Translations under genes and position numbers: made by a program
Notes under the pieces: model-generated
The model's database searches: none
What the model saw: only the letters and a program-made list of their open reading frames with translations
What the model was told of the DNA's origin: nothing
In this document: in pieces, positions 9,206 through 63,160 of the stretch
Layout: every line of letters begins with the position of its first letter
How positions within the stretch are numbered: position 1 is the stretch's first letter
IMG/VR virus record: IMGVR_UViG_3300032116_000032
Location: 72,113-136,112 of that record
From: a virus
DNA: 64,000 nucleotides
Strand: one strand, 5' to 3'

Positions 9206-9210
9206 CCAAA

Positions 9211-9218
9211 ATATTTAT
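9211..9218 (+). promoter_or_regulatory. ATATTTAT upstream motif (putative late promoter)
   Basis: Exact motif 8 nt before the fibre ATG; recurs before many genes. Confidence 0.5.
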
Positions 9219-9226
9219 TATACGAT

Positions 9227-12178
9227 ATGGCATTATTAACGGATCAAATACAAGCTACTGGAGTTTCTCTAACAGACTTAATTCACATAGTAATAACTGG
9301 TGATACTTCTCAAAATCCTGCGGGATCATCTTTTAAAGCATCAATTTCTCAACTTGTTAGTTTAATTAGTGGTTCTACAGGAACAAACGGTACATCAGGA
9401 ACTAATGGAAGTAGTGGTACAAATGGAACTAACGGTACATCAGGAACTAATGGGTCTAGCGGTACTAATGGGTCTAGCGGTACTAATGGAACAAACGGTA
9501 CTTCAGGAACAAATGGATCTAGCGGTACTAATGGAACAAACGGTACTTCAGGAACAAATGGATCTAGCGGTACTAATGGAACAAACGGTACTTCAGGAAC
9601 AAATGGATCTAGCGGTACTAATGGAACAAACGGTACTTCAGGAACAAATGGATCTAGCGGTACAAATGGAACAAATGGATCTAGCGGTACAAATGGAACT
9701 AATGGTACAAGCGGTCTAAGTGGTATTGGGTTATTTTTACCATTATCAGGGGGCACGGTTACGGGTAATACAATATTTAATGCCGGTTTAAGTGCGATAA
9801 CAATATCGGCAACAACCTATCAAAACTTACCAAGTGATGTGATAATTATTGACTCAACACAGATTCAATCAGGATTTACAGGTGGAGTCTTGTTCCAAAG
9901 TTCAGCAAGTACGGTAAGTCAAACTACTGGATTTACTTGGGATAATGTAAATAAAAGGTTGGGAATTGGGACTAACACCCCTCTCTATGACTTAGACGTT
10001 TATGGGTCTATCTATCAAAAAACCGGAGAATTATTAATTACATCCACAAGTGGTGTTAATAAAGAAGGTCCATTTATAGCATCAGACGGCGGAACTAACA
10101 GAACCATTCAATTAGGAATTTCAGACAATTCAACTGTACCTGTCGGCATTGATATGTTTGTAACTAACAATACATTCCCGCCAAGTTACATGAACTTTAG
10201 AGTAAACGATGCTGATCTAGTTAGGATGTCTGGTAGTTCTGTTATAATTAGCGGTCTTACATATACAAGTGGTATAACCTCTACATCTAAAATAACATTT
10301 CCACAGCTGACAATTAATAGTTCATACACCATGACTGATAATGATTTTATGATTGATGTTACAGGAGGAACATTCAACGTACAATTACTATCTGCCGTAG
10401 GAAGACAAGGAAGAATAGTTGTTATTAAAAATAATGGTGGAGGTGCAGTTACGGTAGTCCCTTATGGTAGTGAAACTATAGATCTAGCACCATTTGTTAT
10501 TTTAGGTGAAACAAACTCATTACAATTAGTAAGTAATGGTAGTTTTTGGGTTGCAATGTCTTATAATATCTCAACAGTAAACTCATCAACAGGTGTTTTT
10601 GAATTTAGTGGTTTGACAAAGGCAAGTAATACCACATTTAATGTTGCCCCTGTTAAAGGTTGGATAGTTGATGATACAACTAATCCGTTGAGTCCCCAAC
10701 TTTTATTTGTTTATTTTACTGGAGGAACGTATACTGATAGTTTTGTAACAACGGCTTTTGAGACATTTGTTTATTTAACAAGTGGTGCAACAATTGGACA
10801 ACAATCAACACCACTAACTGAACAACAAAGAAGACAAAATATATTTTTAGGTAAAATAGGACACCCTGAAAAAGTTTCAATTAACTTAGTGTTTTCACAA
10901 CCTGATTTTGTTTTATCACCATTATCTCAACTTCGTGATATGTTTGTACCTATTAATTTAATTAATGGGGGTGTATATCCATCAGCCAACGGAGCAAACT
11001 TAAAATTCAACACAAGTGCCGGGTTTATATATGGATTAGGTATTAATTTTGCATCGAATACATTGAACCCAAATGCATTATCGATATCAGGAACAAGCCC
11101 TTGTACATTCCAATATAGAACACAAACAGGAGGAACGGTTACAAATGTTACAGATATTGACCCACTTAACTATGATGTTGGGGGTGTTATAACTCCAATC
11201 ACAGGTACTAAAGCCACAAACCAAAGAATTTACCTATTGCAAAATGGACAATTTAGAATTCAATATGGTCAAACCGAATATAACACTTTAGTACAGGCGA
11301 TAGAAGCATTACAAACAGAAACATTCACAATATTCCCCAATTTTGTAAATAATGCCGTTCTTATTGGTATATTAACGGTGTTAAGTACCGCAACGGATTT
11401 GACCGATACAACTAAAGCAAGATTCTTTTTTGCGTCTAAGTTTGGTGAAACTGTAGGTGCTACGGGGGGTGTGTCAACAACAAACCTACAACAAGCTTAT
11501 AATAACTCAGTACAACCTGAAATAACAACCAACTCAACTTTAGGTGCGTTCTCAATCAAAAATGGTACGGGTAATCCTGATGCCACCACAAATTTATTTG
11601 AAGGAATTAATTCTGCAAATACTTTAACATCGGTAATCACTGCAAGAGGTACTATCACAGGGTCTAGTATTACTACAAATGGTGCTGTGACGGGAGCTAC
11701 CGTAATTGGTGATGTTATATCGGGTAACACAGTGTCGGCCTCAACACTTAACCTTGCAGGATCACAAATAAATACTGCTTGGACATCTTATGTACCTGTT
11801 TTGACCGCAAGTGTAACTAATCCTGTAATTGGTAATGGAACCGTAGAAGGTTGGTATAAAATAGTTGGTAAAACATGTTTTGTGAGAGGAAATATTGTAA
11901 TGGGATCAACAACAACATTTGGTGCAGGAGAATGGTATGTGTCAGTACCATTTACCGCGGCTCATGCTGATGCAATATTATTAAATGCTGACATATTAGA
12001 TAATGGGACCGCTTGGTATAATGCATTTATAGCGGGTGCAAGAGCAGGATTTAATACCAAAGCGGCAATACAATATCAAAATACAGGAGGAACTACAGAT
12101 AGTGTTTCACCAAGTACCCCATTTACTTGGACAACTGGTGATAGATTTTTATGGAATGGAAGTTATGAAATCGCATAG
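9227..12178 (+). CDS. tail fibre protein with collagen-like (G-X-Y) domain
   Basis: 40 uninterrupted G-X-Y triplets, then FLPLSGGTVTG, RLGIGTNTP..LDVYG and a C-terminal WTSYVP...GWYKIVGKTCFV fibre-tip-like domain. Confidence 0.8.
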   Translation: MALLTDQIQATGVSLTDLIHIVITGDTSQNPAGSSFKASISQLVSLISGSTGTNGTSGTNGSSGTNGTNGTSGTNGSSGTNGSSGTNGTNGTSGTNGSSGTNGTNGTSGTNGSSGTNGTNGTSGTNGSSGTNGTNGTSGTNGSSGTNGTNGSSGTNGTNGTSGLSGIGLFLPLSGGTVTGNTIFNAGLSAITISATTYQNLPSDVIIIDSTQIQSGFTGGVLFQSSASTVSQTTGFTWDNVNKRLGIGTNTPLYDLDVYGSIYQKTGELLITSTSGVNKEGPFIASDGGTNRTIQLGISDNSTVPVGIDMFVTNNTFPPSYMNFRVNDADLVRMSGSSVIISGLTYTSGITSTSKITFPQLTINSSYTMTDNDFMIDVTGGTFNVQLLSAVGRQGRIVVIKNNGGGAVTVVPYGSETIDLAPFVILGETNSLQLVSNGSFWVAMSYNISTVNSSTGVFEFSGLTKASNTTFNVAPVKGWIVDDTTNPLSPQLLFVYFTGGTYTDSFVTTAFETFVYLTSGATIGQQSTPLTEQQRRQNIFLGKIGHPEKVSINLVFSQPDFVLSPLSQLRDMFVPINLINGGVYPSANGANLKFNTSAGFIYGLGINFASNTLNPNALSISGTSPCTFQYRTQTGGTVTNVTDIDPLNYDVGGVITPITGTKATNQRIYLLQNGQFRIQYGQTEYNTLVQAIEALQTETFTIFPNFVNNAVLIGILTVLSTATDLTDTTKARFFFASKFGETVGATGGVSTTNLQQAYNNSVQPEITTNSTLGAFSIKNGTGNPDATTNLFEGINSANTLTSVITARGTITGSSITTNGAVTGATVIGDVISGNTVSASTLNLAGSQINTAWTSYVPVLTASVTNPVIGNGTVEGWYKIVGKTCFVRGNIVMGSTTTFGAGEWYVSVPFTAAHADAILLNADILDNGTAWYNAFIAGARAGFNTKAAIQYQNTGGTTDSVSPSTPFTWTTGDRFLWNGSYEIA
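9371..9730 (+). repeat. collagen-coding tandem repeat; four exact 45-bp copies at 9481-9660
   Basis: Unit TACTAATGGAACAAACGGTACTTCAGGAACAAATGGATCTAGCGG starts at 9481, 9526, 9571 and 9616 and encodes TNGTNGTSGTNGSSG. Confidence 0.95.
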
Positions 12179-17894: not shown

Positions 17895-18503
17895 ATGGCA
17901 AAAAATTTAAAAAACTCCCCCAAAGTTTTGGGTCTTGATATTTCCACAAAAACCATAGGGTGGGCATTGTTTGATATTAAAACACAAGAATTACTTGAAT
18001 TAACTCACATCTCACCAAGACCAAAAATGGAAAAAGATGAGGATGATAAATTAAAAGAATTATTGTTGAAATCAGAAATATTTGCCGAAAAACTTAAACA
18101 ATATAAAGATTTAGGAATTGTTAGAATTATCATAGAAGAACCACTTTTGAATTCTAATAACATTTATACAATACAAACACTATTAAGATTTAATAGTTTT
18201 GTGTTTAAAGAAATCTATAATATAATGGGAATTGTTCCTGAATTTATTTCAACTTACAACTCAAGAAAATTTGCATTCCCAGATTTAGTTCAAGAAAACG
18301 ATAAGAAAAAATTTGTATTATTTGGTGGATTACCAAAAGACGTGGATAAGAAAATGATCATTTGGGAAAAAGTTGCAAAAAGAGAACCCCAAATTACATG
18401 GCATTATACAAAAAACAATACATTAAAGAAAGAAAATTTTGATCAAACAGACGCCTATACTTGTGTTTTAGGATTTATGAGATCAAAAGAAATTTGGAAA
18501 TAA
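17895..18503 (+). CDS. RuvC-like Holliday junction resolvase
   Basis: RNase H-fold acidic motifs VLGLDISTKTIGWALFD, IIIEEP and DQTDA. Confidence 0.8.
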   Translation: MAKNLKNSPKVLGLDISTKTIGWALFDIKTQELLELTHISPRPKMEKDEDDKLKELLLKSEIFAEKLKQYKDLGIVRIIIEEPLLNSNNIYTIQTLLRFNSFVFKEIYNIMGIVPEFISTYNSRKFAFPDLVQENDKKKFVLFGGLPKDVDKKMIIWEKVAKREPQITWHYTKNNTLKKENFDQTDAYTCVLGFMRSKEIWK

Positions 18504-22346: not shown

Positions 22347-22585
22347 CATACAAAGAATTTTACTATTGGTTAGATGGTTATTTGACCAATAAGCTTGAAA
22401 GTGAAAAACTAAATATCGCACCTATAATTGAAAAGATGGGTCAAGTAAAAGAGGAAAGAACTAAAAGCGATTTATTACCTTTCCAACACATACCAGTACC
22501 GATTAATCCATTCCCCGTCCAAGATGATCCCTACAGACCACCATACGAAGTATATTGCGGAGACAAAACACAATTGAATGATTAA
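22343..22585 (+). CDS. hypothetical protein
   Basis: 80-aa ORF coupled in the operon. Confidence 0.6.
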   Translation: MTYKEFYYWLDGYLTNKLESEKLNIAPIIEKMGQVKEERTKSDLLPFQHIPVPINPFPVQDDPYRPPYEVYCGDKTQLND

Positions 22586-23357
22586 GAAACTTATACACTT
22601 TTCAGACTTACATATCCGTCTTTTTAAAGACCACGATTTGTATAAATCAATTTTGGAAACTGCCATTGAACAATGGAAAGAGTTGAAGCCAGAACGCATC
22701 GTGTTCACGGGTGATTTAGTTCATTCTAAAAACCAAATGACACCTGAACTTATTGAGATGGTTAGATGGTTATTAACAGAATGTTCTTCTGTTGCTAAAA
22801 CAATTATTATTCCAGGTAACCACGACTTCTTGGTTAATAACACAGAAAGATTGGATGCTCTTTCACCTATCATTAATTCACTGAATAGTGAAAACATCGT
22901 CTATTACAAAGACAGAGGAGTTTATGAAGACGAAAACATCAGTTGGTGTGTGTATTCACAATATCAAGGTAATATTCCGCCTGAAATTACTGAAGCGAAA
23001 GGTAAAAGAATTGGATTATTTCACGGACCAATTCAGGGAATGAAAACAGATCTTGGGTTTGACTTTGGTGAGGAGGCATATGACGTTGAAAAGTTCGATG
23101 GGTTAGAAACCGTGTTATGTGGAGACATTCACAAAAGACAAGAATTCAAATTCAAAACCGGTAAAGGTTATATGATTGGGAGTCCAATCCAACAAAATAT
23201 TGGTGAGAGTATTGGACGACACGGTTATGGGATCTACAATGTTGAAAGTCAAGAATATTCTTATGTAGATCTACCAAACCCAAAACCATTTCTAAAGTTC
23301 TCCATAAAATCATTTGAAGATATTGAAAATGGAACCGAAAAACTCCAAAATATTTAG
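22578..23357 (+). CDS. Mre11/SbcD (T4 gp47)-like metallophosphoesterase nuclease, C-terminally short
   Basis: HFSDLH, FTGDLVH, IPGNHD, LFHG and LCGDIH motifs; YMIGSPIQQN..E. Confidence 0.88.
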   Translation: MIKKLIHFSDLHIRLFKDHDLYKSILETAIEQWKELKPERIVFTGDLVHSKNQMTPELIEMVRWLLTECSSVAKTIIIPGNHDFLVNNTERLDALSPIINSLNSENIVYYKDRGVYEDENISWCVYSQYQGNIPPEITEAKGKRIGLFHGPIQGMKTDLGFDFGEEAYDVEKFDGLETVLCGDIHKRQEFKFKTGKGYMIGSPIQQNIGESIGRHGYGIYNVESQEYSYVDLPNPKPFLKFSIKSFEDIENGTEKLQNI

Positions 23358-24048
23358 TAAGGAAATGATGCAGGCGGTGTCTGCATTTTGTGAATCCAAA
23401 GAAATTAAGGATGTGGATAATTTCATTTACCTTTGTTTTAAACAAGGATTTGATATCAGAAAATATGGTCTTTTGGAAAAAACACTTAATGAAGGTGAAA
23501 AAGACTTAAAAACGGGTGAAGTTCAGGAAAAACGAGTGGAAATAGAGGTAATAAAAGAAATACGGGTGGAAGTTCCTGTCGAAGTTATTAAAGAAGTTGA
23601 GGTTATTAAAGAGGTTGAAAAGATTGTTGAAATACCTATTGAGGTAATCAAGGAAGTTGAGAAAATAATCCACACCTCTGATGATACTCAAGTAAATGAA
23701 CTGTTGTCAAAAATAGAACAGTTAAACGGAGAAATTTCGATTAAAACTACCGAAATTGGCAGAATTAGAGAAGAATTTTCCATTAAAACGGAAGAAATGG
23801 AAAATATTTTCCAAAATAAAATGTCTGAAAAGGATGAAGATTTAGACGAACTTAGACAAAAGTTAGACATTCTCGTAACAAATGATAAGACAAAAATGTT
23901 ACAAGAAACACTCCAAAACTTAAGAAGTGAGTTACAACAAAAGAACGAACAAATAAGAGAATTGGAAAAAATAAACCGAGAACTTCTTAACGGTAATCAA
24001 AATCAAGCTTACCTTTTGAGGGGATCAAATTTAAATAGACGAGTATGA
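23314..24048 (+). CDS. coiled-coil protein with EVPVEV/EKIVE repeats
   Basis: VEVPVEVIKEVEVIKEVEKIVEIPIEVIKEVEK followed by a long heptad region; the start may be at 23329. Confidence 0.65.
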   Translation: MKILKMEPKNSKIFSKEMMQAVSAFCESKEIKDVDNFIYLCFKQGFDIRKYGLLEKTLNEGEKDLKTGEVQEKRVEIEVIKEIRVEVPVEVIKEVEVIKEVEKIVEIPIEVIKEVEKIIHTSDDTQVNELLSKIEQLNGEISIKTTEIGRIREEFSIKTEEMENIFQNKMSEKDEDLDELRQKLDILVTNDKTKMLQETLQNLRSELQQKNEQIRELEKINRELLNGNQNQAYLLRGSNLNRRV

Positions 24049-24401
24049 TAATTTTAATGTGGATGATTGCGGCCTATGGGATGACCAATATTTTGGTTTA
24101 CGGATCAATCTTCAACGGATTAAGAAATTGGATCCATAATAACGCACAACCTAATGTTGGATTGACTATTTTTAGACCAGTATTTGAATTCATTTCAAAC
24201 TTAATAAAATGTGTACTTTGCACATCAACATGGGTAGGATTCTTTTTATCGTTAACATTGTTTGCACCTTGGCATGAAATAATTGGACTTAATAAATATA
24301 TTTCTATATTTTTTGATGGAATGTTATCGGCAGGTGCCGTATGGGCGATTAATAGTGTAATCGAATGGTTTGAAGAAAATAGACCAAATAATAATAATTA
24401 A
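24045..24401 (+). CDS. membrane protein (CxxC, 2-3 TM; DUF1360-like)
   Basis: Hydrophobic segments flanking LIKCVLCTSTWVG. Confidence 0.6.
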   Translation: MIILMWMIAAYGMTNILVYGSIFNGLRNWIHNNAQPNVGLTIFRPVFEFISNLIKCVLCTSTWVGFFLSLTLFAPWHEIIGLNKYISIFFDGMLSAGAVWAINSVIEWFEENRPNNNN

Positions 24402-24413
24402 CTAAAAGTAAAA

Positions 24414-24731
24414 ATGGGAAAAGCGGCAAAAGAACACAGAAAGAAAGTTGCAAAACGAAATGCAAAAATTAAACAAGAAAAGGCTGGCATGCAAAAAGCT
24501 TTTGATATGTTACTACAACAACAATTGGAAAAATTGAAAAATGATGAAATGACTGCAATGGTGGGAGATCAAGAAGTTAAAATGGAATTAGTTGAAGATA
24601 AAATAGTTGACCATGCATTCAAGTTCACTCCTAATGAAGAGGAGTCTGCAAAAATCAACAAAGAATTTGAACCTGAATATGATAGTGCGGGATATACAAT
24701 CGAAGATAGAGAGTTACCAACAGAAGAATAA
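24414..24731 (+). CDS. hypothetical protein
   Basis: 105-aa ORF with basic N-terminus and acidic C-terminus. Confidence 0.6.
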   Translation: MGKAAKEHRKKVAKRNAKIKQEKAGMQKAFDMLLQQQLEKLKNDEMTAMVGDQEVKMELVEDKIVDHAFKFTPNEEESAKINKEFEPEYDSAGYTIEDRELPTEE

Positions 24732-24733
24732 AA

Positions 24734-27106
24734 ATGGATCTTTTTAATCCGCCAAAATTATTTAACTACAATATTATGATAAAAGACTTGGACTTTTCTA
24801 CGTTTGAAAACCCAATTATACAAGTTGTTTGGGAAGATTTACCAGAAAACTTCACACAGGATAAACTCAAAAGTGTAAAACATTACTTCTCAAAAAAGTA
24901 TAACACAACGAATGTAAATGTGTTAACAAAGGCAAAAAACGTTGAAACCGAAACGATGCAAAGTATTGATGTTTCGGTAAATATTAACGATGCTCAGTAC
25001 CAACTTGAACTAATCACAAACTATCTAAAGTCAAAAGGGCACGAAGATAAAAGTGAGGATATATTAGCTATTAATAGAATGGTTGAGAATAGAATGTCTG
25101 GGGACGAAGAAAACCAAGCTCAATTTAAAAAGTGGTATATTCGAAACATTGAGTTCTCAAACTTTTTATCATATGGAGAAAATCAAAGATTAGACTTTGA
25201 TAAGTTAAATGGGATTGTGGTGGTTGAGTCTGATCCACCAAACTTTGGGGGGAAAACGGTTCTTACCGTTGACCTCCTAATGTTTTTATTCTTTAATGAA
25301 ACGACAAAAACAACCAAAGCCGAGGAGATCTTCAACCGATTTTCAAATAAAGACAAAGTTCACGTTAAAGGTGAAATTACAATTGATGGTGAAGATTATG
25401 TTATTATAAGAAACATTGAAAGAAAGTTATCTAAGAAAGGTGATTGGAACGTTAAAACAGAATTGGACTTCTTCAAAAAATTATCGGACGGTACCTTATT
25501 AAATTTTACTGGTGAACAAAGAAGAGAAACAGAAGCCTTCATTAAGAATTCAATTGGAACCAAAGAGGACTTCTTAATGACAATTCTAACAACAGGATCA
25601 AATCTTGAAGAGTTGTTAGAGTCAAAACCAACGGCAAGAGGCCAGGTTTTGTCACGTTTTATGGGACTTGAGTTTTTGAAAAGAAAAGAAGAAGTTGCAA
25701 AAGAAATCTACTCCGAGTTTTCAAAACAAAAAATTTCCAACATTTATTCATCAGAGCAATTAAAGACTGATATTGAAACGTATCAAAACTCAATTTCTGA
25801 ATTACAAAATCAAATTAAGGAAAGTAAATTAAAATTGGTTGAGACTGATGAAGCGATAACAAAAGGTAAAACATATCGTGATGATATGTTAAAGAAAAAA
25901 CACACAAACATTGATCAAGAATTGAGTTTGTTAAACCCTGAAAAAACCAAAGATGAAATTAAAGAAATTGAACGTGAGAAATCGGGATATCTTGCAAAAA
26001 TATCCGAAATCAAAGTTGTTGAACCTTCTAAATTCTATGAAGAAGAAATCCATGACAAGGTTAAAGAAGAGATCAACATTCTTTACAAAGAGATCGTTAA
26101 AGTTGATACAGAAATTGCGTCAATTAACAAATTAAAATCTTCAGTTGAAGGTGGAATCAAATGTGAACACTGTGGAATTGAGTTGATGAATGCTGCTATT
26201 ACAAATGCCAAAATTGCCGAATTAGATGGATTTATCGTGCAAAAAACCACAAAAACAACACTTATGACGGATTTATCCGACAAAGAAAAAAGTTTTGTAC
26301 AACTCAAAAAAGAGTTTGACGAATATGAAAAAAACAAGTTGGTTAAAGAAAAGTATGAGATTTCTGTTGAAAGTTGTGACCTTAAGATTGGGTCGTTAAG
26401 TGATAAGATCAAAAGATGGGAGGAAATTCAAGATAAAATCCAAGAAAATCAAAAAATCGAAGCTCAGTTAATAAAGGCCGACGTGAGATTAGATGAGTTG
26501 GAAAATCAAAGAAGAACGATTAATAATTCAATCACAACAAACGAGGGATCAATTAAATCTATTGAGGAAAAGATTGATATTAACCAAAAGAAAATTGTTA
26601 CAATTAAAGAGGAAGAAGAAAAAGAAAAGATATATAAGATCTACTTGGAACTTTATGGTAAGAACGGTATATCAAAAATAATTATGAAAACAATGATGCC
26701 ATTAATCAATTCTGAATTACAAAGATTGATGGAAGACTCATGTTATTTCAAATTGGAAATTCGTATTAATGAAAAGAATGAGGTTGAATTTATTATGACT
26801 GATAATGCAACTGGTGTTGAGAAATTAATGACTTCAGGTTCAGGTTTTGAAAAAACAATTTCTTCATTAGCTTTGAGATCAGTTCTTACTAAGATTGCAA
26901 GTTTACCCAAACCAAATCTTGTTGTTCTTGATGAGGTGTTTGGAAAAATTGCTAATGACAACTTAGAGATGGTTTATGAATTCTTCACAAAAATTAAAGA
27001 TTATTTTGAAAAGATCTTTGTAATAAGTCACAACTCAATAGTATCAACTTGGGGTGATCATGTTGTAAAAATTAAGAAAGAAAACAATTTGTCAAAAGTT
27101 TTATAG
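24734..27106 (+). CDS. Rad50/SbcC (T4 gp46)-like SMC ATPase with N-terminal extension
   Basis: IEFSNFLSYG, Walker A NFGGKT, coiled coils with CEHC zinc hook, signature TSGSGFE, Walker B VVLDEVF and H-loop VISH. Confidence 0.92.
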   Translation: MDLFNPPKLFNYNIMIKDLDFSTFENPIIQVVWEDLPENFTQDKLKSVKHYFSKKYNTTNVNVLTKAKNVETETMQSIDVSVNINDAQYQLELITNYLKSKGHEDKSEDILAINRMVENRMSGDEENQAQFKKWYIRNIEFSNFLSYGENQRLDFDKLNGIVVVESDPPNFGGKTVLTVDLLMFLFFNETTKTTKAEEIFNRFSNKDKVHVKGEITIDGEDYVIIRNIERKLSKKGDWNVKTELDFFKKLSDGTLLNFTGEQRRETEAFIKNSIGTKEDFLMTILTTGSNLEELLESKPTARGQVLSRFMGLEFLKRKEEVAKEIYSEFSKQKISNIYSSEQLKTDIETYQNSISELQNQIKESKLKLVETDEAITKGKTYRDDMLKKKHTNIDQELSLLNPEKTKDEIKEIEREKSGYLAKISEIKVVEPSKFYEEEIHDKVKEEINILYKEIVKVDTEIASINKLKSSVEGGIKCEHCGIELMNAAITNAKIAELDGFIVQKTTKTTLMTDLSDKEKSFVQLKKEFDEYEKNKLVKEKYEISVESCDLKIGSLSDKIKRWEEIQDKIQENQKIEAQLIKADVRLDELENQRRTINNSITTNEGSIKSIEEKIDINQKKIVTIKEEEEKEKIYKIYLELYGKNGISKIIMKTMMPLINSELQRLMEDSCYFKLEIRINEKNEVEFIMTDNATGVEKLMTSGSGFEKTISSLALRSVLTKIASLPKPNLVVLDEVFGKIANDNLEMVYEFFTKIKDYFEKIFVISHNSIVSTWGDHVVKIKKENNLSKVL

Positions 27107-46267: not shown

Positions 46268-47026
46268 ATGATATACACACCAGAACTAATCAAATCAATT
46301 GCACCGGCAGTATTCGCCACATCACCATCTTCTAAAATGACGAACAAGTATGAGTTCGTACCAACTAATGAAGTAATGGAGATTTTTGACCGAGAAGGTT
46401 GGAAACTGTCATCTGTAAAACAAACAGGTAGAGGTATCCATTCAATGCACGAATTAAAATACAGAAACAGTGAATTACCAAAAGTTGGTGACACAGTTGT
46501 TGAAGCAATCGTTAGAAACTCTCACGATGGAACTGCAACATTCTCTATGGGAGCAGGACTTTTCCGATTGGTATGTTCAAATGGACTTACAGTTCCTACG
46601 TCAGTAGCGGAGAAATTCTCAATTCGACACAATCACTTTTCATTCGACGATGTTCGAGGTTTAGCTGAGGACTTCTCTAAGAAACTCCCAAGAATCGAAG
46701 AGTCAGTTACTCGAATGATGGAAAAGGAGTTAACTGAAAAAGAAAAACTCCGTTTAATCAAAGAAGCGGTTAAGATCCGTTGGGCGGTTGGAAATGGACC
46801 TGAATCTATTGACATTACAGACATCCTAACACCGTTTCGACCTGAGGATGAGGGAAGTGATCTTTGGACAGTATTTAATGTGATACAAGAGAAAATGACT
46901 CGAGGTGGATTCACTTACAAAAGTCCAAGAGGAAGACAAACAACACTTCGTGGAATCAAAAGCATCCAAGCCACGAATCGTTTAAACACTAAACTTTGGG
47001 AAGCCGCTGAACTATTATTAGTATAA
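46268..47026 (+). CDS. DUF932/DUF945-family protein
   Basis: APAVFA..PS......YEFVPT, RNSHDG, GLFRLVCSNGL and DLWTVFNVIQE motifs. Confidence 0.8.
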   Translation: MIYTPELIKSIAPAVFATSPSSKMTNKYEFVPTNEVMEIFDREGWKLSSVKQTGRGIHSMHELKYRNSELPKVGDTVVEAIVRNSHDGTATFSMGAGLFRLVCSNGLTVPTSVAEKFSIRHNHFSFDDVRGLAEDFSKKLPRIEESVTRMMEKELTEKEKLRLIKEAVKIRWAVGNGPESIDITDILTPFRPEDEGSDLWTVFNVIQEKMTRGGFTYKSPRGRQTTLRGIKSIQATNRLNTKLWEAAELLLV

Positions 47027-47063: not shown

Positions 47064-47408
47064 ATGGAAAAATTCAAACACGAAAAAAGACTTTTAGATT
47101 TCCTCATAGAGGAAAATAAAATATTGTATTCAACAATCCAACTAACGGGTTTTATTGAACTAACACCTGAAAGTTTACTTGAAAAACCAAGATTTGAGAA
47201 TTATTTATTGGACGGTATGCAATATACTGATGGGGTTTCATATTCTGATGGAATATTTATTTATGATAACAATATTTACATATATTTATCTAAAACTGAC
47301 CCATTAGTCTCTTCATTTTCTTGTAAGATATATTATCCTATAAATAGAAAAAAAGACGTTGAGTTCTTTATATTAAACCTAAAAAAATTAAAAAAAGATG
47401 GAAATTAG
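47064..47408 (+). CDS. hypothetical protein
   Basis: 114-aa ORF. Confidence 0.55.
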   Translation: MEKFKHEKRLLDFLIEENKILYSTIQLTGFIELTPESLLEKPRFENYLLDGMQYTDGVSYSDGIFIYDNNIYIYLSKTDPLVSSFSCKIYYPINRKKDVEFFILNLKKLKKDGN

Positions 47409-47712
47409 TAGTGTTGAATTACAACAAAAAATAAATGCTGGTGAAAAACTTGTGGTTGAGTTTTGGGCTGAGTGGTGTGGACCATGTAAAATGATGAAAC
47501 CAATTTTTGAAAGAGTTGCATCTTCAAACGAAAGTGAAGTCCAAATGTATACACTTAATATTGATAATAACAGAGAAGTCGCTTTAAGCCTTGGTATCAG
47601 AAGTATACCAACTGTAAAGATGTTTAATTCTGGTGAAGTGGTTGAGACAAAAGTGGGTATGATGAATGAAGGACAGATAAAAGAAATGGTAAGTGAATTG
47701 ATCAATGGATAA
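47398..47712 (+). CDS. trxA: thioredoxin
   Basis: VVEFWAEWCGPCK active site and IRSIPT cis-Pro loop. Confidence 0.92.
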   Translation: MEISSVELQQKINAGEKLVVEFWAEWCGPCKMMKPIFERVASSNESEVQMYTLNIDNNREVALSLGIRSIPTVKMFNSGEVVETKVGMMNEGQIKEMVSELING

Positions 47713-47992
47713 AATTGCAGTTGTGTTCACAATGAAGAGTTGTCCTCATTGTCACACATTTAAAAAAATGTTAGAAGAGGCTGACATTGACTTTATCGAT
47801 AGAGATATTGATGAATATGAAGAAGAATACGATATGTTTGTTGAAGTTACAGGAAATGATTTTGTACCGGCATTCATGTTAATTGAGAATCCCGAAAGTG
47901 AAACTCCTACATCAAATTTATATGCTCCTGATCGAGATTTTGAGGATATAGATGAAGGACTAAAAATAATTAAAGAATTTTACGAAAGATAA
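47705..47992 (+). CDS. glutaredoxin/NrdH-like protein
   Basis: VFTMKSCPHC..K..L...I.F...DI and FVPAF. Confidence 0.8.
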   Translation: MDKIAVVFTMKSCPHCHTFKKMLEEADIDFIDRDIDEYEEEYDMFVEVTGNDFVPAFMLIENPESETPTSNLYAPDRDFEDIDEGLKIIKEFYER

Positions 47993-47993
47993 A

Positions 47994-48017
47994 AAAACCC
48001 CTCAATCGAGGGGTTTT
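47994..48017. terminator. bidirectional intrinsic terminator
   Basis: AAAACCCCTC-AATC-GAGGGGTTTT between convergent genes. Confidence 0.8.
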
Positions 48018-48020
48018 CTT

Positions 48021-48716
48021 TTATATCAATATTATGTCTTTTAGTCTATCTTGAATCAAGTATGGTTTGTCCAATGTCTGATCAGTGATATCTTTTGTAA
48101 AGTCGTAGTTAGACAGCCTTTCTTTGAATTCAGTAAGATCCATATCAAAACAATCTAAAACAAGACTTTCAATAGTTTTCTTTGGTATTTGAGAATCACA
48201 AATCACTTTAATTCTATAATCTTCATCTTCATTTAAATCACTTGAGTAATGAAAATATAATTTATCAATACCCAACAAAGAATACATTTGATTGAAGATA
48301 TAATGTGAGTAATATAATATTCCTCTACCACAACCTAAACTATGCCCATAAGGAAACTCTGATGAAATGTTTATTTCTGAAATGGGGTCTAATTCCTTAA
48401 CGTACAAAGATTTATTAACTGTGATCCATGCTCTTGGAAAATCTGTGATTTCTTGTTCGTACTTAATGATATCAATAATGTTAAGACTTTCTTTATTGAG
48501 TGATTTAAATAATTCCTTGTTTGATTCTATAAATTCTATTTTAAGTTCGTTAAGGTTTAGAACATTACTACTTATAGTTTGACCGTTAACAACCACAAAG
48601 TTTTCACAATCTGTTACTTGAATTATTGTATTTTCTGATTTGTTGAATTTTGACAGGATGTAGTCTGCAAATAGATTTACAAAATACCGTCTTGTGTTTT
48701 TTTCTAATTTTCTCAT
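48021..48716 (-). CDS. degenerate S-adenosylmethionine synthetase (MetK)-fold protein, N- and C-domains only
   Basis: FADYIL...FVVVNGQT.S...LNLNEL resembles the MetK N-domain; [22 protein letters not shown]...IP...[11 protein letters not shown] resembles the MetK C-domain; catalytic motifs are absent. Confidence 0.55.
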   Translation of the reverse strand: [231 protein letters not shown]

Positions 48717-48766: not shown

Positions 48767-49882
48767 TTAAATATAATCTAAAAACATTTCGTTTATGTTT
48801 CTTCTTGTTCTGTCCCAATCAGGATATTCAGGGATTCTAATATCAATACATTCTACATCATCATTAGAAATCATATTATTTATAAGTTCCGTATATCCAC
48901 CAAAATATTCTAAAAATGAATCACTCCAAGTTCCGCCTTTATTATTTTCTAAAAATGTTGTTATATTTCCAATAAAGTCTCTGATTTTAATATATTGGTC
49001 GTATTTAGTTTTTTCACCGACCTTTCTTGGAATCTCATCAATACGACCCTCGAAGTATTCATTAAGACCATTATAAACAGCTTCATAAACTTCATCTTCA
49101 TATGCTGTATTTTCAGAGCTGTAATAAACACTTCTCAATTCTTGACCAATTTCTTGTAAATCTTTTTTGAAAAGTTCGTTTGATGCGTCACTATCTTTTA
49201 ATAGGTCGTTTAAATCTTCAGGTCTTATTCTAAAATATCCTTCTGTCCCTTGTATTTCAGATAAATGTTCAAAAAAGTCTGAATCATAATCTTCTAATGA
49301 AAGTTCTTGATTTCCAATTTTTTTATAAATAACATCTTTAAGATGTGCTAAATTAGAATCATCTAAAACATCTACTGTATCGTGTGGTGACATACTAGAA
49401 TCATAATACCAATCGTGACCTAAACCTTCTTCACTTAAAATTAGTTTTGCAACATATCTAGGGCCACTATCACTTCTTCTACTACCACTACAAAAATATT
49501 CACTTAACTCTTCACTATCTCTTAATTTTAGATAAAAACCACCATTTCTAATTTCAACATCAGTTATTAGATTGTTAATTATAAAATAAACTGTGTCTTC
49601 GTAGTTGTCTTCTAAACCTTTTAAAAGTAATATATTTTTTAATTCTTCGGGTGCGTCTTCATAACTAAGATTACCTAAAACACCATTTTCATCTAAAAAA
49701 TTAATTAGTTCACTGTCCCAATTACGATAACCTACTTGACCTAAATCTAATTCATCTAAAAGACCGTATTTTTTAACAAACTTAAAGAATGTTATTAAGT
49801 CATTAAAATACGGCTCAATGTCGTCATCAAAATCACCATAATTAAATGAATTAACTAATTGTCTTGCTCTATCTAAACTCAT
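48767..49882 (-). CDS. acidic hypothetical protein
   Basis: 371-aa D/E-rich ORF preceded by ATATTTAT. Confidence 0.65.
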   Translation of the reverse strand: MSLDRARQLVNSFNYGDFDDDIEPYFNDLITFFKFVKKYGLLDELDLGQVGYRNWDSELINFLDENGVLGNLSYEDAPEELKNILLLKGLEDNYEDTVYFIINNLITDVEIRNGGFYLKLRDSEELSEYFCSGSRRSDSGPRYVAKLILSEEGLGHDWYYDSSMSPHDTVDVLDDSNLAHLKDVIYKKIGNQELSLEDYDSDFFEHLSEIQGTEGYFRIRPEDLNDLLKDSDASNELFKKDLQEIGQELRSVYYSSENTAYEDEVYEAVYNGLNEYFEGRIDEIPRKVGEKTKYDQYIKIRDFIGNITTFLENNKGGTWSDSFLEYFGGYTELINNMISNDDVECIDIRIPEYPDWDRTRRNINEMFLDYI

Positions 49883-49887
49883 ATGGT

Positions 49888-49895
49888 ATAAATAT
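49888..49895 (-). promoter_or_regulatory. ATATTTAT upstream motif (putative late promoter)
   Basis: Exact motif on the minus strand 5 nt before the start. Confidence 0.5.
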
Positions 49896-49952
49896 CTTAT
49901 AAATAAAAAAGGTGTCCCAATCGGAACACCTTATCTTGATGATACGCAAATA

Positions 49953-50090
49953 TTATTTTCTGTAATATTTGTTAATGATTTTTTTTACTGACTCTTGAAC
50001 ATTAGTTTTATTTTGAGTCGTATTTGCACCTTGTTGTGTTTGTGTTTGAGGTTGTTGTGCCTGTTGTTTGTTTTTACATCCGCAGCCCAT
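49953..50090 (-). CDS. 45-aa MGCGCK protein (not in ORF track)
   Basis: MGCGCKNKQQAQQPQTQTQQGANTTQNKTNVQESVKKIINKYYRK; ATATTTAG upstream and a hairpin terminator at about 49905-49930 downstream. Confidence 0.6.
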   Translation of the reverse strand: MGCGCKNKQQAQQPQTQTQQGANTTQNKTNVQESVKKIINKYYRK

Positions 50091-52212: not shown

Positions 52213-52395
52213 ATGGGATTTAATAAGAGAATATTAAAGAAAGAAAACATTTTAAATAACCTCCCAAATCTTATGACCTATTTAGATGCCGATGCAATTA
52301 TTTGCACCGACAATTTTTCACGCGAGGTATATGGGTTATTTCGTATAGGATCATCAAAAGAAGAAATAATAAATCTAATAAATAAAATAAAATGA
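52213..52395 (+). CDS. hypothetical protein
   Basis: 60-aa ORF coupled to glutamine synthetase. Confidence 0.5.
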   Translation: MGFNKRILKKENILNNLPNLMTYLDADAIICTDNFSREVYGLFRIGSSKEEIINLINKIK

Positions 52396-53525
52396 AAATT
52401 AAATTGGAATATGTTTGGTTAGACGGATATAAACCTGAACCTAACCTAAGAAGTAAAGTTAAGATTGTTGATTACGAATCTGTTAAGAACGCATTTCTTG
52501 ATGGTAATTTTCCTATGTGGAATTTTGATGGGTCATCAACAAATCAAGCTGACACGGGAAACTCTGATCGTTTGTTAAAACCTGTGAGACATTACGCTCC
52601 GACTAATTTTTTAAAAAATAATAATCCTGTGTATGTTTTGTGTGAGGTATTAAATCCTGATGGAACACCACACCAATCCAATAAAAGATCTGAAATTGGA
52701 GAAAATTTTGAAGATCTTTGGTTTGGTTTTGAGCAAGAATACTTCATTCGTGAAGAAGTGAATGGTAATATTTTGGGACACAAAAGAAATATCCTTAAAG
52801 GTCAAGGTGAGTACTACTGTGGTGTAGGTCATAATGTTGTTGGTCGTCCATTTGTTGAAGAACATTTAAATATGTGTCTTGAATATGGTATTGATATTAC
52901 TGGGACAAATGCTGAGGTTGCTTTGGGTCAATGGGAATACCAAGTATTCTCAAAAGGAAAATTAAAAGGTGGAGATGATCTTTGGATGTCTAGATACTTC
53001 CTATTCAAGATTGCTGAGAACTATGGTTATCACATTGAACTTCACCCAAAACCAATCACACACGGAGAGTGGAATGGTTCAGGACTTCACACAAATTTCT
53101 CAACCGACCAAATGAGATTTGATGGAAACGAAGAATACTTCATGGCATTATTCAATGCATTTGAGTCAAGACATGAAGACCATATCAAAGCATACGGATC
53201 AAACAATCATTTACGATTAACAGGTGAATATGAAACACAAGCAATTGATAAGTTCAGTTGGGGTGTATCTGATCGTGGAGCATCAATTAGAGTTCCTCAG
53301 GACACCGCAAAAGAATGGAAAGGATATGTTGAAGATCGTAGACCTGGATCAAATGCGGACCCATACAAAATCATTCGTGAGATTGTTAACTCATTATATG
53401 TTGCACAACTTCTTTATGACACAAAAACTATGATTAATAAAGACGTTGATTTGAATGGTCTTAGTGAGAAGTATGGAACAATGTCTAACGAGGAGTTATT
53501 AAAAGAATATAGAGAAGAAGAATAA
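52392..53525 (+). CDS. glnII: glutamine synthetase type II
   Basis: EYVWLDG, WNFDGSST.QA, WFGFEQEY, NAEVALGQWEYQ, HPKP, WNGSGLHTNFST, RLTGEYET and RGASIRVP/EDRRP motifs. Confidence 0.93.
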   Translation: MKIKLEYVWLDGYKPEPNLRSKVKIVDYESVKNAFLDGNFPMWNFDGSSTNQADTGNSDRLLKPVRHYAPTNFLKNNNPVYVLCEVLNPDGTPHQSNKRSEIGENFEDLWFGFEQEYFIREEVNGNILGHKRNILKGQGEYYCGVGHNVVGRPFVEEHLNMCLEYGIDITGTNAEVALGQWEYQVFSKGKLKGGDDLWMSRYFLFKIAENYGYHIELHPKPITHGEWNGSGLHTNFSTDQMRFDGNEEYFMALFNAFESRHEDHIKAYGSNNHLRLTGEYETQAIDKFSWGVSDRGASIRVPQDTAKEWKGYVEDRRPGSNADPYKIIREIVNSLYVAQLLYDTKTMINKDVDLNGLSEKYGTMSNEELLKEYREEE

Positions 53526-59908: not shown

Positions 59909-61159
59909 ATGAGAAGTATTATTATCACTGAAAACCAATTTAGATTTATAACTGAAGCTTTGGGGGTTCCTGATAACATTTTGGATGCTGCTAATATGTT
60001 ATATGATATTGTTGAAAAAGACATCAAATCAATAAATAGTATCGAAGATGAATATGAATTTGATGGTGATATCGAATTTGAATTAGGTGGTAAACATAAG
60101 GTAATGATTGACTCATATGAATTAAAAGTTAATATAGAAACTATTGATGGAGAAGAAGGTGTCTTAGACATTATCTCAATGGGAATGGCGGGAGGTTTTG
60201 GATTTAATAGAGATGTCTATATGAAAGAAACTGAACCATCAACAACTTTAGAATTAACAATAACATTTGCTGTTGGTGAAAATTGGGAACCTGAAGGGTT
60301 AATTAGAAAAATGGAGGAAGAAAGGGACGAACACGTCGCATCATTGGCTCATGAGATTAAACACAAATACGACAAACAATCAAAAAAGTTTGGTTTAATT
60401 GGTCCTGATGCTACTTACCAAGCAACGCAAAGAAGAGGTCATTTTGGAATACCTGCGATTGATAGAGTTTTCTTCAGGTTTATGTATTATATCCACGGTA
60501 TTGAAAACCTTGTAAGACCTGTTGAGGTTGCATCTTCAATGAAATCAAAAAATATTACAAAATCAAAGTTCTTAGATTTTTTACAAACCAATAGAGTGTT
60601 CAAAGAATTAGTCGAAATTAAGAATTTCACATTTGAAGATTTCATTAACCAATTAAAAGAAAATGAGGATAGATTAGATGCTCTTCTAAACCACATAGGA
60701 GAAGACCCATCTAATATGAATATTGACCAAAAGATTGACAGAGTGTTGGAAGTTGCTTATATTGATTTAGTGAATAACAGAATGGAAATGTTTGTTCGAA
60801 TGACGGAACATCATATGGATGATATGATAAAATTCGGATCACAACTTGGACTTTTACCATCAAATTTAAAAGATAAGGTTAAACAGTTAGAAAAAACAGA
60901 CGAGATTAGACGAAAGTTTTTATCTCAAACTATGAAATATGAAAAAAACCCAACCAAATTTTTTAAAGATGAAATTGAAAACTTCCAATACGTTGCAAAT
61001 AAAATGTTAAAGAAGATATCAAAACTATACGCCATGGCAAAAGACGACGAACAAGTAAGTGAATCAATTCTAAATTGGGATCTTCACCAACAAATTATGG
61101 AAAAAAAGTATGGTAAAAGAAAAATCGAAACAAAATACAAAAATTGGAATTTTAAATAA
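59909..61159 (+). CDS. leader-bearing protein with HEXXH motif (putative zincin)
   Basis: MRSIIITENQFRFITEA leader; SLAHEIKHKYD. Confidence 0.55.
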   Translation: MRSIIITENQFRFITEALGVPDNILDAANMLYDIVEKDIKSINSIEDEYEFDGDIEFELGGKHKVMIDSYELKVNIETIDGEEGVLDIISMGMAGGFGFNRDVYMKETEPSTTLELTITFAVGENWEPEGLIRKMEEERDEHVASLAHEIKHKYDKQSKKFGLIGPDATYQATQRRGHFGIPAIDRVFFRFMYYIHGIENLVRPVEVASSMKSKNITKSKFLDFLQTNRVFKELVEIKNFTFEDFINQLKENEDRLDALLNHIGEDPSNMNIDQKIDRVLEVAYIDLVNNRMEMFVRMTEHHMDDMIKFGSQLGLLPSNLKDKVKQLEKTDEIRRKFLSQTMKYEKNPTKFFKDEIENFQYVANKMLKKISKLYAMAKDDEQVSESILNWDLHQQIMEKKYGKRKIETKYKNWNFK

Positions 61160-61526
61160 AATAATAGTTTTAATATCACTTATATCTTTATCTTTTATTT
61201 TAACCACCCCTGAATATAAAGGTTTAGCAACTTACTACGGTCAACATTGGACAGGGAGATTGACCTCATCAGGTGAGAGGTTTCATGCGGATAGCCTAAC
61301 CGCAGCTCACAAGTACTTCAAATTTGGGACCGTACTTAAAGTTGTGAATCATCATAACGATTCGGTTTGTTATGTTAAAGTTAATGACCGACTACCCAAA
61401 AGTTCTAAATTCATAATTGATCTTAGTTATGGAACCGCGAAAAAACTTAATTTTCTAAAACGAGGAGTTATAAATGTAACCCTGATTCCCGTAGATACGG
61501 TAGATATAATAAAATCCTCAAAATAA
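61110..61526 (+). CDS. RlpA-like DPBB lytic transglycosylase (start uncertain)
   Basis: GLATYYG, GRLTSSGERF, LTAAH, FGTVLKV, VKVNDR and IIDLSY motifs; N-terminal hydrophobic segment. Confidence 0.85.
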   Translation: MVKEKSKQNTKIGILNKIIVLISLISLSFILTTPEYKGLATYYGQHWTGRLTSSGERFHADSLTAAHKYFKFGTVLKVVNHHNDSVCYVKVNDRLPKSSKFIIDLSYGTAKKLNFLKRGVINVTLIPVDTVDIIKSSK

Positions 61527-61550
61527 TTTCCTATATCTAATTTTATTTCT

Positions 61551-61558
61551 TATCTTTG
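61551..61558 (+). promoter_or_regulatory. Bacteroidota-type -7 promoter element TAnnTTTG
   Basis: TATCTTTG heading a run of small genes. Confidence 0.55.
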
Positions 61559-61562
61559 TTCC

Positions 61563-61790
61563 ATGTGGACAACTAAAGAAACTAAAAGAGAGTATTGTGG
61601 ATTTGAAATCGTCAAGTATGAGGGTTCCAAAATGAAAGATACTTTTAGAAAAAAAGACCCACGAACATTTCAAAGTGGAGATAGTAAGTTCACCAAATGG
61701 CATTCCTACGAAGTAACCATTGATGGTGTTAAATATGATTTTGACAAGTTGAAAGATGTTAAAGAATTTATTGATTCGAAGTTGAAATGA
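61563..61790 (+). CDS. hypothetical protein
   Basis: 75-aa ORF. Confidence 0.55.
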   Translation: MWTTKETKREYCGFEIVKYEGSKMKDTFRKKDPRTFQSGDSKFTKWHSYEVTIDGVKYDFDKLKDVKEFIDSKLK

Positions 61791-61978
61791 AAAAACCTTG
61801 TAAAGAATGCCCACACTTTATAAAAAATCGTCATAATGATATGATTGTTGATTTCGGTCGTAGGACTGGAAAAAGACACAATTGTCATATGACAGAAGGG
61901 GTAAAAGATTTGTGGAATGTTAAAAACGAAAAATTAGAATGTTATGGGTCAAAGAGAGATAATTTACGGAGTGTGTGA
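61787..61978 (+). CDS. small Cys/His-rich (metal-binding) protein
   Basis: PCKECPH...HNCHM...ECYG. Confidence 0.55.
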   Translation: MKKPCKECPHFIKNRHNDMIVDFGRRTGKRHNCHMTEGVKDLWNVKNEKLECYGSKRDNLRSV

Positions 61979-62165
61979 TAAGACAGGAAGTTGTGATTCC
62001 TATTTTGGATTCTTCAAAACAAAAGAAGACGCCGAGCACGAAGTACAAGTTCAAGCTGGTAGACTCAAAGAAGACTTGGGTTGGTTGGATATACAAATAC
62101 AATCTGATAGAGCCATAATGAATGGTAAATTGATGGTAGTAATTCATTCATATGTTCTTCGATGA
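61944..62165 (+). CDS. hypothetical protein
   Basis: 73-aa ORF. Confidence 0.5.
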   Translation: MGQREIIYGVCDKTGSCDSYFGFFKTKEDAEHEVQVQAGRLKEDLGWLDIQIQSDRAIMNGKLMVVIHSYVLR

Positions 62166-62425
62166 TTAAAAGATATTTGATTGTTTTCTTATCGGCACTT
62201 ATACTAGAGATTGGAAGTACATTCTACATTACTGTAGTTGCGGATAAGAACTATCTTGGAATGTTATTTTTTGCATTTATCGGACCATTTTTATCATTAC
62301 CTTTCGTGGGATTTATGGTTGAGTCAAAAACTTGGAAGGAGAGATTGAAATTAGCTTTATGTTCGGGGCTTGGATATTTGTTCGGGTCCGTTGTTGTGAT
62401 AATATTTTTAGAGTTAACTAAATGA
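62162..62425 (+). CDS. small membrane protein
   Basis: Three hydrophobic segments. Confidence 0.6.
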   Translation: MIKRYLIVFLSALILEIGSTFYITVVADKNYLGMLFFAFIGPFLSLPFVGFMVESKTWKERLKLALCSGLGYLFGSVVVIIFLELTK

Positions 62426-62784
62426 AAATAATAGAAACTAAATTCGGAACCTATATGGAAAGAGAAAATGATCCTACAAAATTGACTGGTGATAAGATCA
62501 AGGTTTTTGTAGAAAGATTGAAAAAAATTGGAATCGAGGTAAAACTTAAGGGTAACTACCCATGGGTTTATATTGATGAAATCTGTGGTATCAAAGTAAA
62601 AGAGAGATTTGAAGGAAATCATGGGTTTACTTTGATATTTCTACCTCCTAGACTTGATAGTCCTGTTTCTGAATTTACGGACATTACCGAGATCTTCAAA
62701 CTTATACGAAAGTATAGTAGAAAGGCTTTGTTAATTCAGATGATGAAAGACGATGAAAAAGATGGGATGTATGATGTTGAATGA
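62422..62784 (+). CDS. hypothetical protein
   Basis: 120-aa ORF. Confidence 0.55.
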   Translation: MKIIETKFGTYMERENDPTKLTGDKIKVFVERLKKIGIEVKLKGNYPWVYIDEICGIKVKERFEGNHGFTLIFLPPRLDSPVSEFTDITEIFKLIRKYSRKALLIQMMKDDEKDGMYDVE

Positions 62785-63160
62785 GTTAAGGGTGGGTAGT
62801 ATTGTAACCCACCCACTTTTTGGAACACCTACTAATGTTAAGGCGATTGCGTTTAACGGACTTTATATTGGAACCAAAGATGGTTTACCTCTTCACATCG
62901 ATGACTTCAAACCGGTTGAAATAACTGATGAGGTTTTGGAGTTACTTCATTTTGTTAAGATGAAAGATACTGCAGTCGGTATTGGTGAGTTTGATTGGTG
63001 GGAAACAGATGATATATCACTCACACACATACATAAAGGTTTATATGGTATTGAGGGGTTAAGTGGTATTAAACCGATAAAATATGTTCACGAATTACAA
63101 AATGCATATTTTGTGATAACAGGAAAAGAATTGAATACAGAAAAAATATTATATTTGTAA
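62753..63160 (+). CDS. hypothetical protein
   Basis: ELRVG...IKYVHELQNAYFVITGKEL, a pattern recalled from Bacteroidota phage hypotheticals; the true start is likely slightly downstream. Confidence 0.6.
   Translation: MKKMGCMMLNELRVGSIVTHPLFGTPTNVKAIAFNGLYIGTKDGLPLHIDDFKPVEITDEVLELLHFVKMKDTAVGIGEFDWWETDDISLTHIHKGLYGIEGLSGIKPIKYVHELQNAYFVITGKELNTEKILYL
63150..63157 (+). promoter_or_regulatory. Bacteroidota-type -7 promoter element TAnnTTTG
   Basis: TATATTTG 6 nt before the 63164 start. Confidence 0.45.

Follow-up and report, generated by a model that had tools for sequence, protein, structure and literature searches.

S-adenosylmethionine (SAM) synthetases, also called MetK or methionine adenosyltransferase (MAT; EC 2.5.1.6; Pfam PF00438, PF02772 and PF02773), are built of three intertwined beta-alpha-beta-beta-alpha-beta domains and assemble into dimers or stable tetramers, with active sites between subunits. 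To our knowledge, and following the SCOP classification, SAM synthetases are essentially the only proteins with this fold, and they always have three domains. Full-length MetK, with an intact GHPDK motif, is also encoded, as an auxiliary metabolic gene, by 126 viral contigs in IMG/VR (loci L054-L133), several of them longer than 100 kb and one of 330 kb. A phage protein of another kind, the T3 SAM lyase, cleaves SAM and binds MetK, and the structure of the complex has been solved (PDB 8bb1, with the lyase as chain B; preprint 10.1101/2023.02.27.530186). Here we describe a phage MetK homologue that is predicted to have kept two of the three domains and to have lost SAM synthesis. It is encoded in a 64,000-nucleotide (nt) stretch of viral DNA (hereafter the window), which is positions 72,113 to 136,112 of IMG/VR record IMGVR_UViG_3300032116_000032. 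The source record is 136 kb long and estimated to be 46% complete; coordinates are those of the window unless given as those of the record.

An earlier reading of the sequence by eye (the original prediction) had proposed a two-domain, catalytically dead MetK homologue at this locus, and it delimited the open reading frame (ORF) exactly. The encoded protein of 231 amino acids (aa) has a mass of 27 kDa and a computed isoelectric point (pI) of 4.9. The gene and its parts are as follows.

48021..48716, minus strand: coding sequence of the MetK-like protein, 231 aa, ATG start, stop codon included (ORF list).
48414..48716, minus strand: first beta-alpha-beta-beta-alpha-beta(-beta) repeat, residues 1-101, the counterpart of Pfam S-AdoMet_synt_N, in which the GHPDK loop has no counterpart (DSSP of the model, profile alignments).
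48369..48413, minus strand: short variable linker, residues 102-116, in place of the lost domain, Pfam S-AdoMet_synt_M, which takes up about 100-150 residues in MetK (family alignment, long-form model, hhalign).
48024..48368, minus strand: second repeat, residues 117-231, the counterpart of Pfam S-AdoMet_synt_C, including the F-D and P-W motifs common to MetK (hhalign, extended alignment, hmmsearch).
48324..48362, minus strand: near-invariant loop S-x-F-P-x-G-x-S...G-R, residues 119-131, at the position of the MetK phosphate loop, with the Lys and Asp ligands replaced (column conservation, MetK alignment).

An alignment of 52 diverse family members (A1) provided both the family profile and the basis of an AlphaFold2 model, which reached a predicted local distance difference test score (pLDDT) of 94.7 and a predicted template modelling score (pTM) of 0.90. 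Comparison of the model with the PDB by Foldseek gave at least 130 matches at E ≤ 0.001, the best with E = 2.6e-6 and a probability of 1.00, and all 26 matches listed were MetK/MAT. VIA-align placed 221 of the 231 residues on E. coli MetK (8bb1_A, residues 8..381) with a Z score of 17.0 and a root-mean-square deviation (rmsd) of 3.6 Å. A search independent of Foldseek, through 48,161 representative chains, found only three with Z ≥ 8, all of them MATs (bacterial, 16.0 and 14.0; archaeal, 9.0); the next best chain had Z 5.3. The structural match was unique to MATs and covered the domains, which places the protein in the S-adenosylmethionine synthetase fold superfamily.

Sequence comparisons agreed once profiles were used. 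Single-protein searches of Pfam, PHROGs, NCBIfam, the PDB (phmmer) and the ESM Atlas were empty or returned noise. When the A1 profile was run against 177,635 PDB sequences with hmmsearch, a Ureaplasma methionine adenosyltransferase came first (E = 0.009), matched in two collinear pieces: query residues 11-64 to MAT 19-75, and 136-208 to MAT 262-338. The hhalign comparison with E. coli MetK alone was weak (E = 0.045) and became stronger against an alignment of 29 MetK sequences, built from E. coli metK and from metK genes of phages: the full-length protein reached E = 9.4e-4, the C-terminal half 2.3e-4 (query 128-202 to MetK 270-346) and the N-terminal half alone 0.072 (query 25-65 to E. coli MetK 35-75). 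All of these pieces were collinear with MetK, and the sequence-profile similarity was collinear with the structural match.

The programs reproduced the three by-eye matches of the original prediction: the N-terminal helix and hairpin (in the pieces at query 11-64 and 25-65), a helix with the strand that follows it (by hmmsearch and hhalign), and the third match, to MetK VPSEQLTLLVREFFDL, which lies in the C-terminal half. The extended alignment added a fourth, with family K-P-W-L opposite MetK F-P-W-E near the C-terminus. One detail differed, the pairing of the SEFPYGHS loop with GAFSGKD: its register is ambiguous, hhalign preferring a 7-residue gap that places F-P-x-G opposite A-R-H-G, and the loss of K265, K269 and D271 holds either way. 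Some family members carry the JGI label 'predicted regulator of amino acid metabolism with ACT domain', which no Pfam ACT match backs; we read this label as a spurious match between similar beta-alpha-beta-beta-alpha-beta units. With significant similarity by both Foldseek and profile-profile comparison, we consider the MetK fold of the protein, with two of the three domains, and its homology to MetK established as far as prediction allows.

About 150 MetK residues are without counterpart in the 231-aa protein. The deletion maps between the strand equivalent to MetK M-F-G-Y-A and the strand preceding the phosphate loop, which corresponds to the Pfam middle domain, and the N-terminal T-S-E-S-V-S-E-G-H-P-D-K segment of MetK also falls in an alignment gap. 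In E. coli MetK, residues 1-12 and 129-233 are taken to make up a single structural domain. On that view the two deleted segments would be parts of the same domain, and the excision would have been clean. Canonical MetK/MAT is a single three-domain chain of about 380-420 aa, and the model has two repeats. The window protein matched no Pfam family at E ≤ 1, PF00438, PF02772 and PF02773 included; among the 52 family members, three touch PF02773 (best E = 0.0055) and one touches PF00438 (E = 0.15), all below the cut-offs.

The catalytic motifs are likewise without counterpart in the alignments. Opposite GHPDK, whose His14 and Asp16 are catalytic and Mg ligands in MetK, the family has N-[ST]-[RK]-x-x or a gap, with no His or Asp conserved. 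Alignments and structural superposition agree that the whole segment with the GAGDQG loop and the middle-domain ligands (Asp118, Lys165, Phe230, Asp238, Arg244 and Lys245) is missing from the short form. In the GGGAFSGKD loop, MetK Lys265, Lys269 and Asp271 have G124 (invariant), position 128 (variable) and G130 opposite them, or else the 7-residue gap, and only the Arg and Tyr that follow are retained. MetK Glu55 lies opposite a variable column and Glu42 opposite Q/E/S. The original prediction was therefore right that the central domain is missing, that HPDK and SGKD are degenerate, and that the protein is catalytically dead as a SAM synthetase. Because the middle domain and the ligands of GHPDK, GAGDQG and K265/K269/D271 are gone, the protein, as judged from these alignments, cannot make SAM. 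Binding of SAM in the manner of MetK appears unlikely, because the adenine, methionine, triphosphate, Mg and K ligands are mostly lost or replaced. We also asked whether MetK might be split, its missing domain being encoded elsewhere, and rejected this: the source record and three related records, one of them a complete genome, gave no PF02772 or PF02773 signal, and the retained domains are themselves without ligands.

The family has a pattern of conservation of its own. Four columns of A1 are 100% conserved (S119, G124, D188 and G45), and P122, N14, T47, D82, Y86, S126, S184 and D191 are conserved at 85-98%, in members that share just 22-40% identity with the window protein. Within the loop the figures are 98% for P122, 92% for F121, 87% for S126 and 83% for R131 (with Lys in the remaining 17%). 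Some conserved positions mirror structural ones of MetK: N14/D and D18/D in helix 1, G45/G in the hairpin, F121/F, R131/R and Y135/Y in the long helix, and F190-D191/F-D. Near-invariant positions specific to the family are S119, G124, D188, P122, S184, T47, Y86, D82 and S126, and F40, V42 and V43 are conserved hydrophobics on a sheet strand. We read the S-x-F-P-x-G-x-S...G-R loop as a probable remodelled working surface rather than a drifting relic.

Relatives of the protein at E ≤ 0.001 number 608 at the level of 90%-identity clusters and 205 at 50% identity, and nearly all of the 205 are 205-277 aa long. A sister form of about 265-277 aa has 40-45 extra alignment columns at the deletion point, modelled (pLDDT 90.6) as two helices and a small sheet (helix-helix-hairpin). 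This long form aligned with MetK over 265 of 276 residues (Z 16.4) with a looser rmsd of 5.0, and hhalign returned a single collinear alignment of 218 columns (E = 1.1e-3) in which F-x-F-Y-N-S..R-P-x-Y-H stands opposite MetK M-F-G-Y-A..M-P..A-H, the start of the lost domain. In a quick maximum-likelihood tree of 105 members the long, middle and short forms are interspersed, and each length class must have changed at least 5-6 times to fit the well-supported branches, although some 'short' rows may be fragments. This interspersion suggests that the remnant is dispensable and has been trimmed repeatedly, and that the two-domain core is the conserved unit. A search for fused or longer forms of 486-2000 aa found none, which is weak evidence.

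The gene is under purifying selection, as pairwise dN/dS, the ratio of nonsynonymous to synonymous substitution rates, was 0.06-0.2 in 36 pairs among nine close orthologous genes. Its reading frame is unbroken in all of the more than 30 loci that we fetched, and it has been conserved in single copy throughout a lineage of jumbo phages.

The relatives lie on viral contigs of up to 321 kb, and one of 321 kb is a complete genome bounded by direct terminal repeats. Searches of 50,697 GenBank phage records with four different family members, of limited sensitivity, found none; pattern scans of 185,579 bacterial and archaeal species genomes, also of limited sensitivity, found none either. As far as these searches reach, the family is restricted to phages and its carriers are uncultured. 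BFVD contains a single viral structural relative, A0A6J5L9B3 (208 aa, 25% identity, Foldseek E = 2.6e-12), from an uncultured Caudovirales phage; it carries no annotation, and its structural match makes it a member of the same family. The phage described here is an uncultured jumbo phage of lake type, and its lineage is far from any cultured phage: the nearest cultured-phage relatives of its DNA polymerase, in Salinibacter and Nostoc phages, are only 24% identical. Other genes on the record include the family-B DNA polymerase itself (record 22365-25226), the large subunit of a class I ribonucleotide reductase (record 60666-63095) and an SbcC-like nuclease subunit (window 24734-27106, plus strand). 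A possible SAM user is encoded at record 8146-11055 on the minus strand: the C-terminal region of this 969-aa protein is methyltransferase-like (PHROG 8156, E = 3.8e-8).

Compared with canonical MetK/MAT (PDB 1xra, 8bb1_A), the protein has the same fold and is collinear over both retained repeats. The two have in common the Asp/Asn positions of helix 1, a hairpin Gly in a V-G-G-like setting, the R..Y helix, the F-D motif, the P-W near the C-terminus and an acidic pI. The phage protein differs in being some 150 residues shorter with one domain removed, in the absence of the catalytic motifs, in its invariant loop and in having phage carriers only. Both the two-domain form and full-length MetK are encoded by large phages; the phage full-length enzymes, however, are 46-84% identical to E. 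coli MetK, have all motifs intact and occupy a different locus. One of them is on a 245-kb contig that is a distant relative of the phage described here, with several proteins 22-38% identical. This metK (approximately positions 9332-10459 of locus L139, G004:C1:74000-93999) is 54% identical to E. coli MetK and is flanked by homologues of window genes 17895-18503 and 22578-23357. We did not find the two-domain gene in five large phage records with full-length MetK, nor canonical MetK domains in the four records searched that bear the two-domain gene (the source record and three related ones). This small sample is compatible with descent of the MetK-like gene from a phage-borne metK, and is a weak sign that the two forms are alternatives in phages. 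The T3 SAM lyase is an unrelated small protein that was not among the structural matches of our model; it is an early gene product and an enzyme, and SAM supply would be a common target by analogy only.

The surroundings of the gene bear on when it may be expressed. Their main features are listed below.

47398-47992, plus strand: thioredoxin-like gene (104 aa) overlapping a glutaredoxin-like gene (95 aa); the pair is kept beside the MetK-like gene in all relatives examined.
47991..48013, both strands: G+C-rich hairpin CCCCTC-GATT-GAGGGG with T-runs on both strands (read from the sequence).
48767..49882, minus strand: co-directional gene upstream of the MetK-like gene, encoding 371 aa, pI 4.2, of no known family (ORF list, family searches, synteny).
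49888-49894 and 49899-49905, minus strand: two TATTTAT motifs, whose starts lie 12 and 23 nt ahead of the 371-aa gene's ATG.

The MetK-like gene lies tail-to-tail with the glutaredoxin and thioredoxin genes, with a DUF932 gene beyond them, an arrangement found in relatives down to 30% identity, including the complete 321-kb genome, and in all of these it is on the strand opposite to its neighbours. The hairpin between the convergent genes is, as read from its sequence, a bidirectional terminator common to the MetK-like and glutaredoxin genes. On the other side, a 50-bp gap without a terminator separates the MetK-like gene from the 371-aa gene, so the two probably form one transcript; the synteny table has the 371-aa gene in close relatives only. 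A terminator hairpin (49911-49930) lies just before the two TATTTAT copies.

TATTTAT occurred within 70 nt upstream of 37 of the 135 genes in the record, against about 3 expected. It mostly starts 11-26 nt before the ATG and has no extended consensus, and it resembles a late phage promoter that consists of a -10 element alone. A host-type TAnnTTTG promoter motif, by comparison, was not enriched upstream of genes in the record (8 observed, about 8 expected). Examples of TATTTAT in the window are at 9212, 13215, 28675, 32889, 39434 and 49888-49905. Genes preceded by the motif include those for the tail sheath, two collagen-like tail fibres, a head-tail adaptor-like protein and a virion structural protein; in relatives it precedes either the MetK-like gene or the neighbour on the same strand. 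We regard the pair at 49888..49905 as a putative late-class promoter of the operon formed by the 371-aa and MetK-like genes. Because the motif is common to tail genes, it suggests late-class expression of the MetK-like gene. Late timing fits this promoter class better than an early role against restriction would, unless the protein is packaged in the virion.

Further genes in this neighbourhood were noted. The DUF932 protein (46268-47026, plus strand; E = 5.9e-32) is the best-conserved product of the region, at 51-99% identity across the lineage. A glutamine-synthetase-like protein is encoded at 52392-53525 on the plus strand (Pfam Gln-synt_C, E = 1e-18; Gln-synt_N, E = 6.6e-9); in L002, a close relative, the gene has been replaced or truncated. 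Several relatives also keep, upstream of the MetK-like unit, a 45-aa Gln/Thr-rich ORF that begins M-G-C-G-C (49953-50090 of the window, minus strand). It has a TATTTAT and a terminator of its own and a weak PHROG match to an Rz-like spanin (E = 0.041).

From these observations we favour the following reading. The protein is, as far as the searches reach, a phage-specific MetK descendant from which the middle domain was removed together with the N-terminal strand taken to belong to that domain, and in which the remaining ATP, Mg, K and methionine ligands of the other two domains were replaced. What is left would be a non-enzymatic binding module, most likely a putative self-associating dimer formed through the flat beta-sheet face that MetK uses for subunit pairing. 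Its working surface would probably be the loop S119-x-F-P-x-G-x-S126...G130-R131 together with D36, T47, D82, Y86, S184 and D188, at the old active-site face, and it may act late in infection or be packaged. We assign a probability of roughly 0.55 to the whole statement, that this is a domain-deleted, dead MetK descendant serving as a late, probably dimeric binding module. The mechanistic part taken alone (a late-acting module, non-catalytic and probably dimeric, that works through the former active-site face) is tentative, and on balance we would not expect it to hold in full. Several points weigh against our reading. The structure is a prediction rather than a set of experimental coordinates, and the placement of the old active-site face depends on the alignment to MetK and on the MetK structure. 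The invariant Ser, Asp, Tyr and Arg residues would suit a new site for catalysis or for a small molecule equally well, against a non-enzymatic role. TATTTAT also precedes the gene for a DnaB-like helicase, so late timing is unproven, and in three long-form relatives it precedes the co-directional neighbour, not the MetK-like gene itself.

The same conserved residues speak for a new small-molecule binder or enzyme, whose pocket might hold, for example, a nucleoside, amino acid or SAM-related metabolite and which would serve as a sponge, sensor or catalyst. Four fully invariant positions and eight more at 85-98%, in a family at 22-40% identity, are not what is usually seen in inactive scaffolds, where such positions drift, and the conserved loop sits where MetK binds triphosphate. 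Several of the conserved positions, however, are kept in MetK too for structural reasons (N14, D18, G45, F121, R131, Y135 and F190-D191), no metal-ligand or nucleotide-binding motif is recognisable, and no family or PDB entry other than MetK was matched; we consider such a pocket unlikely, but worth keeping in view. Rather unlikely, in our judgement, is the functional idea of the original prediction, a MetK mimic that would pair with host MetK subunits or cap its oligomers, lowering or retuning SAM synthesis and thereby weakening type I restriction-modification and BREX. In its favour stand the two retained MetK domains, the part of the dimerising sheet face that by homology is kept with them, the hydrophobic F40, V42 and V43 on a sheet strand, the precedent of the T3 SAM lyase-MetK complex, and the occurrence of the two-domain and canonical genes in different records, weak as that sign is. 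Yet the gene belongs to the promoter class of tail genes, while anti-restriction proteins normally act right after entry; the family-specific invariant residues differ from the interface and active-site residues of MetK; and, MetK tetramers being stable, only freshly synthesised MetK would be open to a poison subunit. Co-folding with Flavobacterium johnsoniae MetK (METK_FLAJ1), a stand-in for that of the host, gave 0.00 against a mark of 0.32, a result that counts neither for nor against binding. A related possibility, which we hold to be quite unlikely, is a MetK decoy: a pseudo-subunit that would dock on host MetK, or on a host factor that reads MetK or SAM status, shutting down or redirecting methyl-donor supply late in infection or after delivery by the virion.

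The promoter class, the conservation of a single-copy gene across a jumbo-phage lineage and the acidity that the protein shares with its 371-aa neighbour would also suit a structural, assembly or virion-packaged protein with no link to SAM, for which the MetK fold is merely a stable scaffold. The gene, however, is not set within a structural gene block but lies among thioredoxin, glutaredoxin, DUF932 and glutamine-synthetase-like genes, and its product has no similarity to any virion protein; this explanation seems to us improbable. Finally, the loss of one domain and of all catalytic motifs might be expected of a decaying, functionless remnant of a phage-borne metK. The dN/dS values, the intact frames, the 205 clusters with their invariant positions and the high-confidence fold all speak to the contrary, and these data on selection and conservation exclude a dead relic for practical purposes, leaving it only a negligible chance.

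Our reading of the protein as a non-catalytic MetK descendant has consequences for the family. The MetK fold appears to survive the clean removal of one domain and then to have been kept by strong selection for a role other than SAM synthesis. Three domains, two with a remnant, and two alone make up a natural series that is useful for the study of pseudoenzyme origins. If the decoy interpretation is true, uncultured jumbo phages would widely carry a pseudoenzyme of a new class that serves counter-defence or host takeover. Any contact of the protein with host MetK or with a SAM-dependent defence would represent a new principle of counter-defence; failing that, the gene still serves as a conserved marker for this lineage of uncultured jumbo phages.

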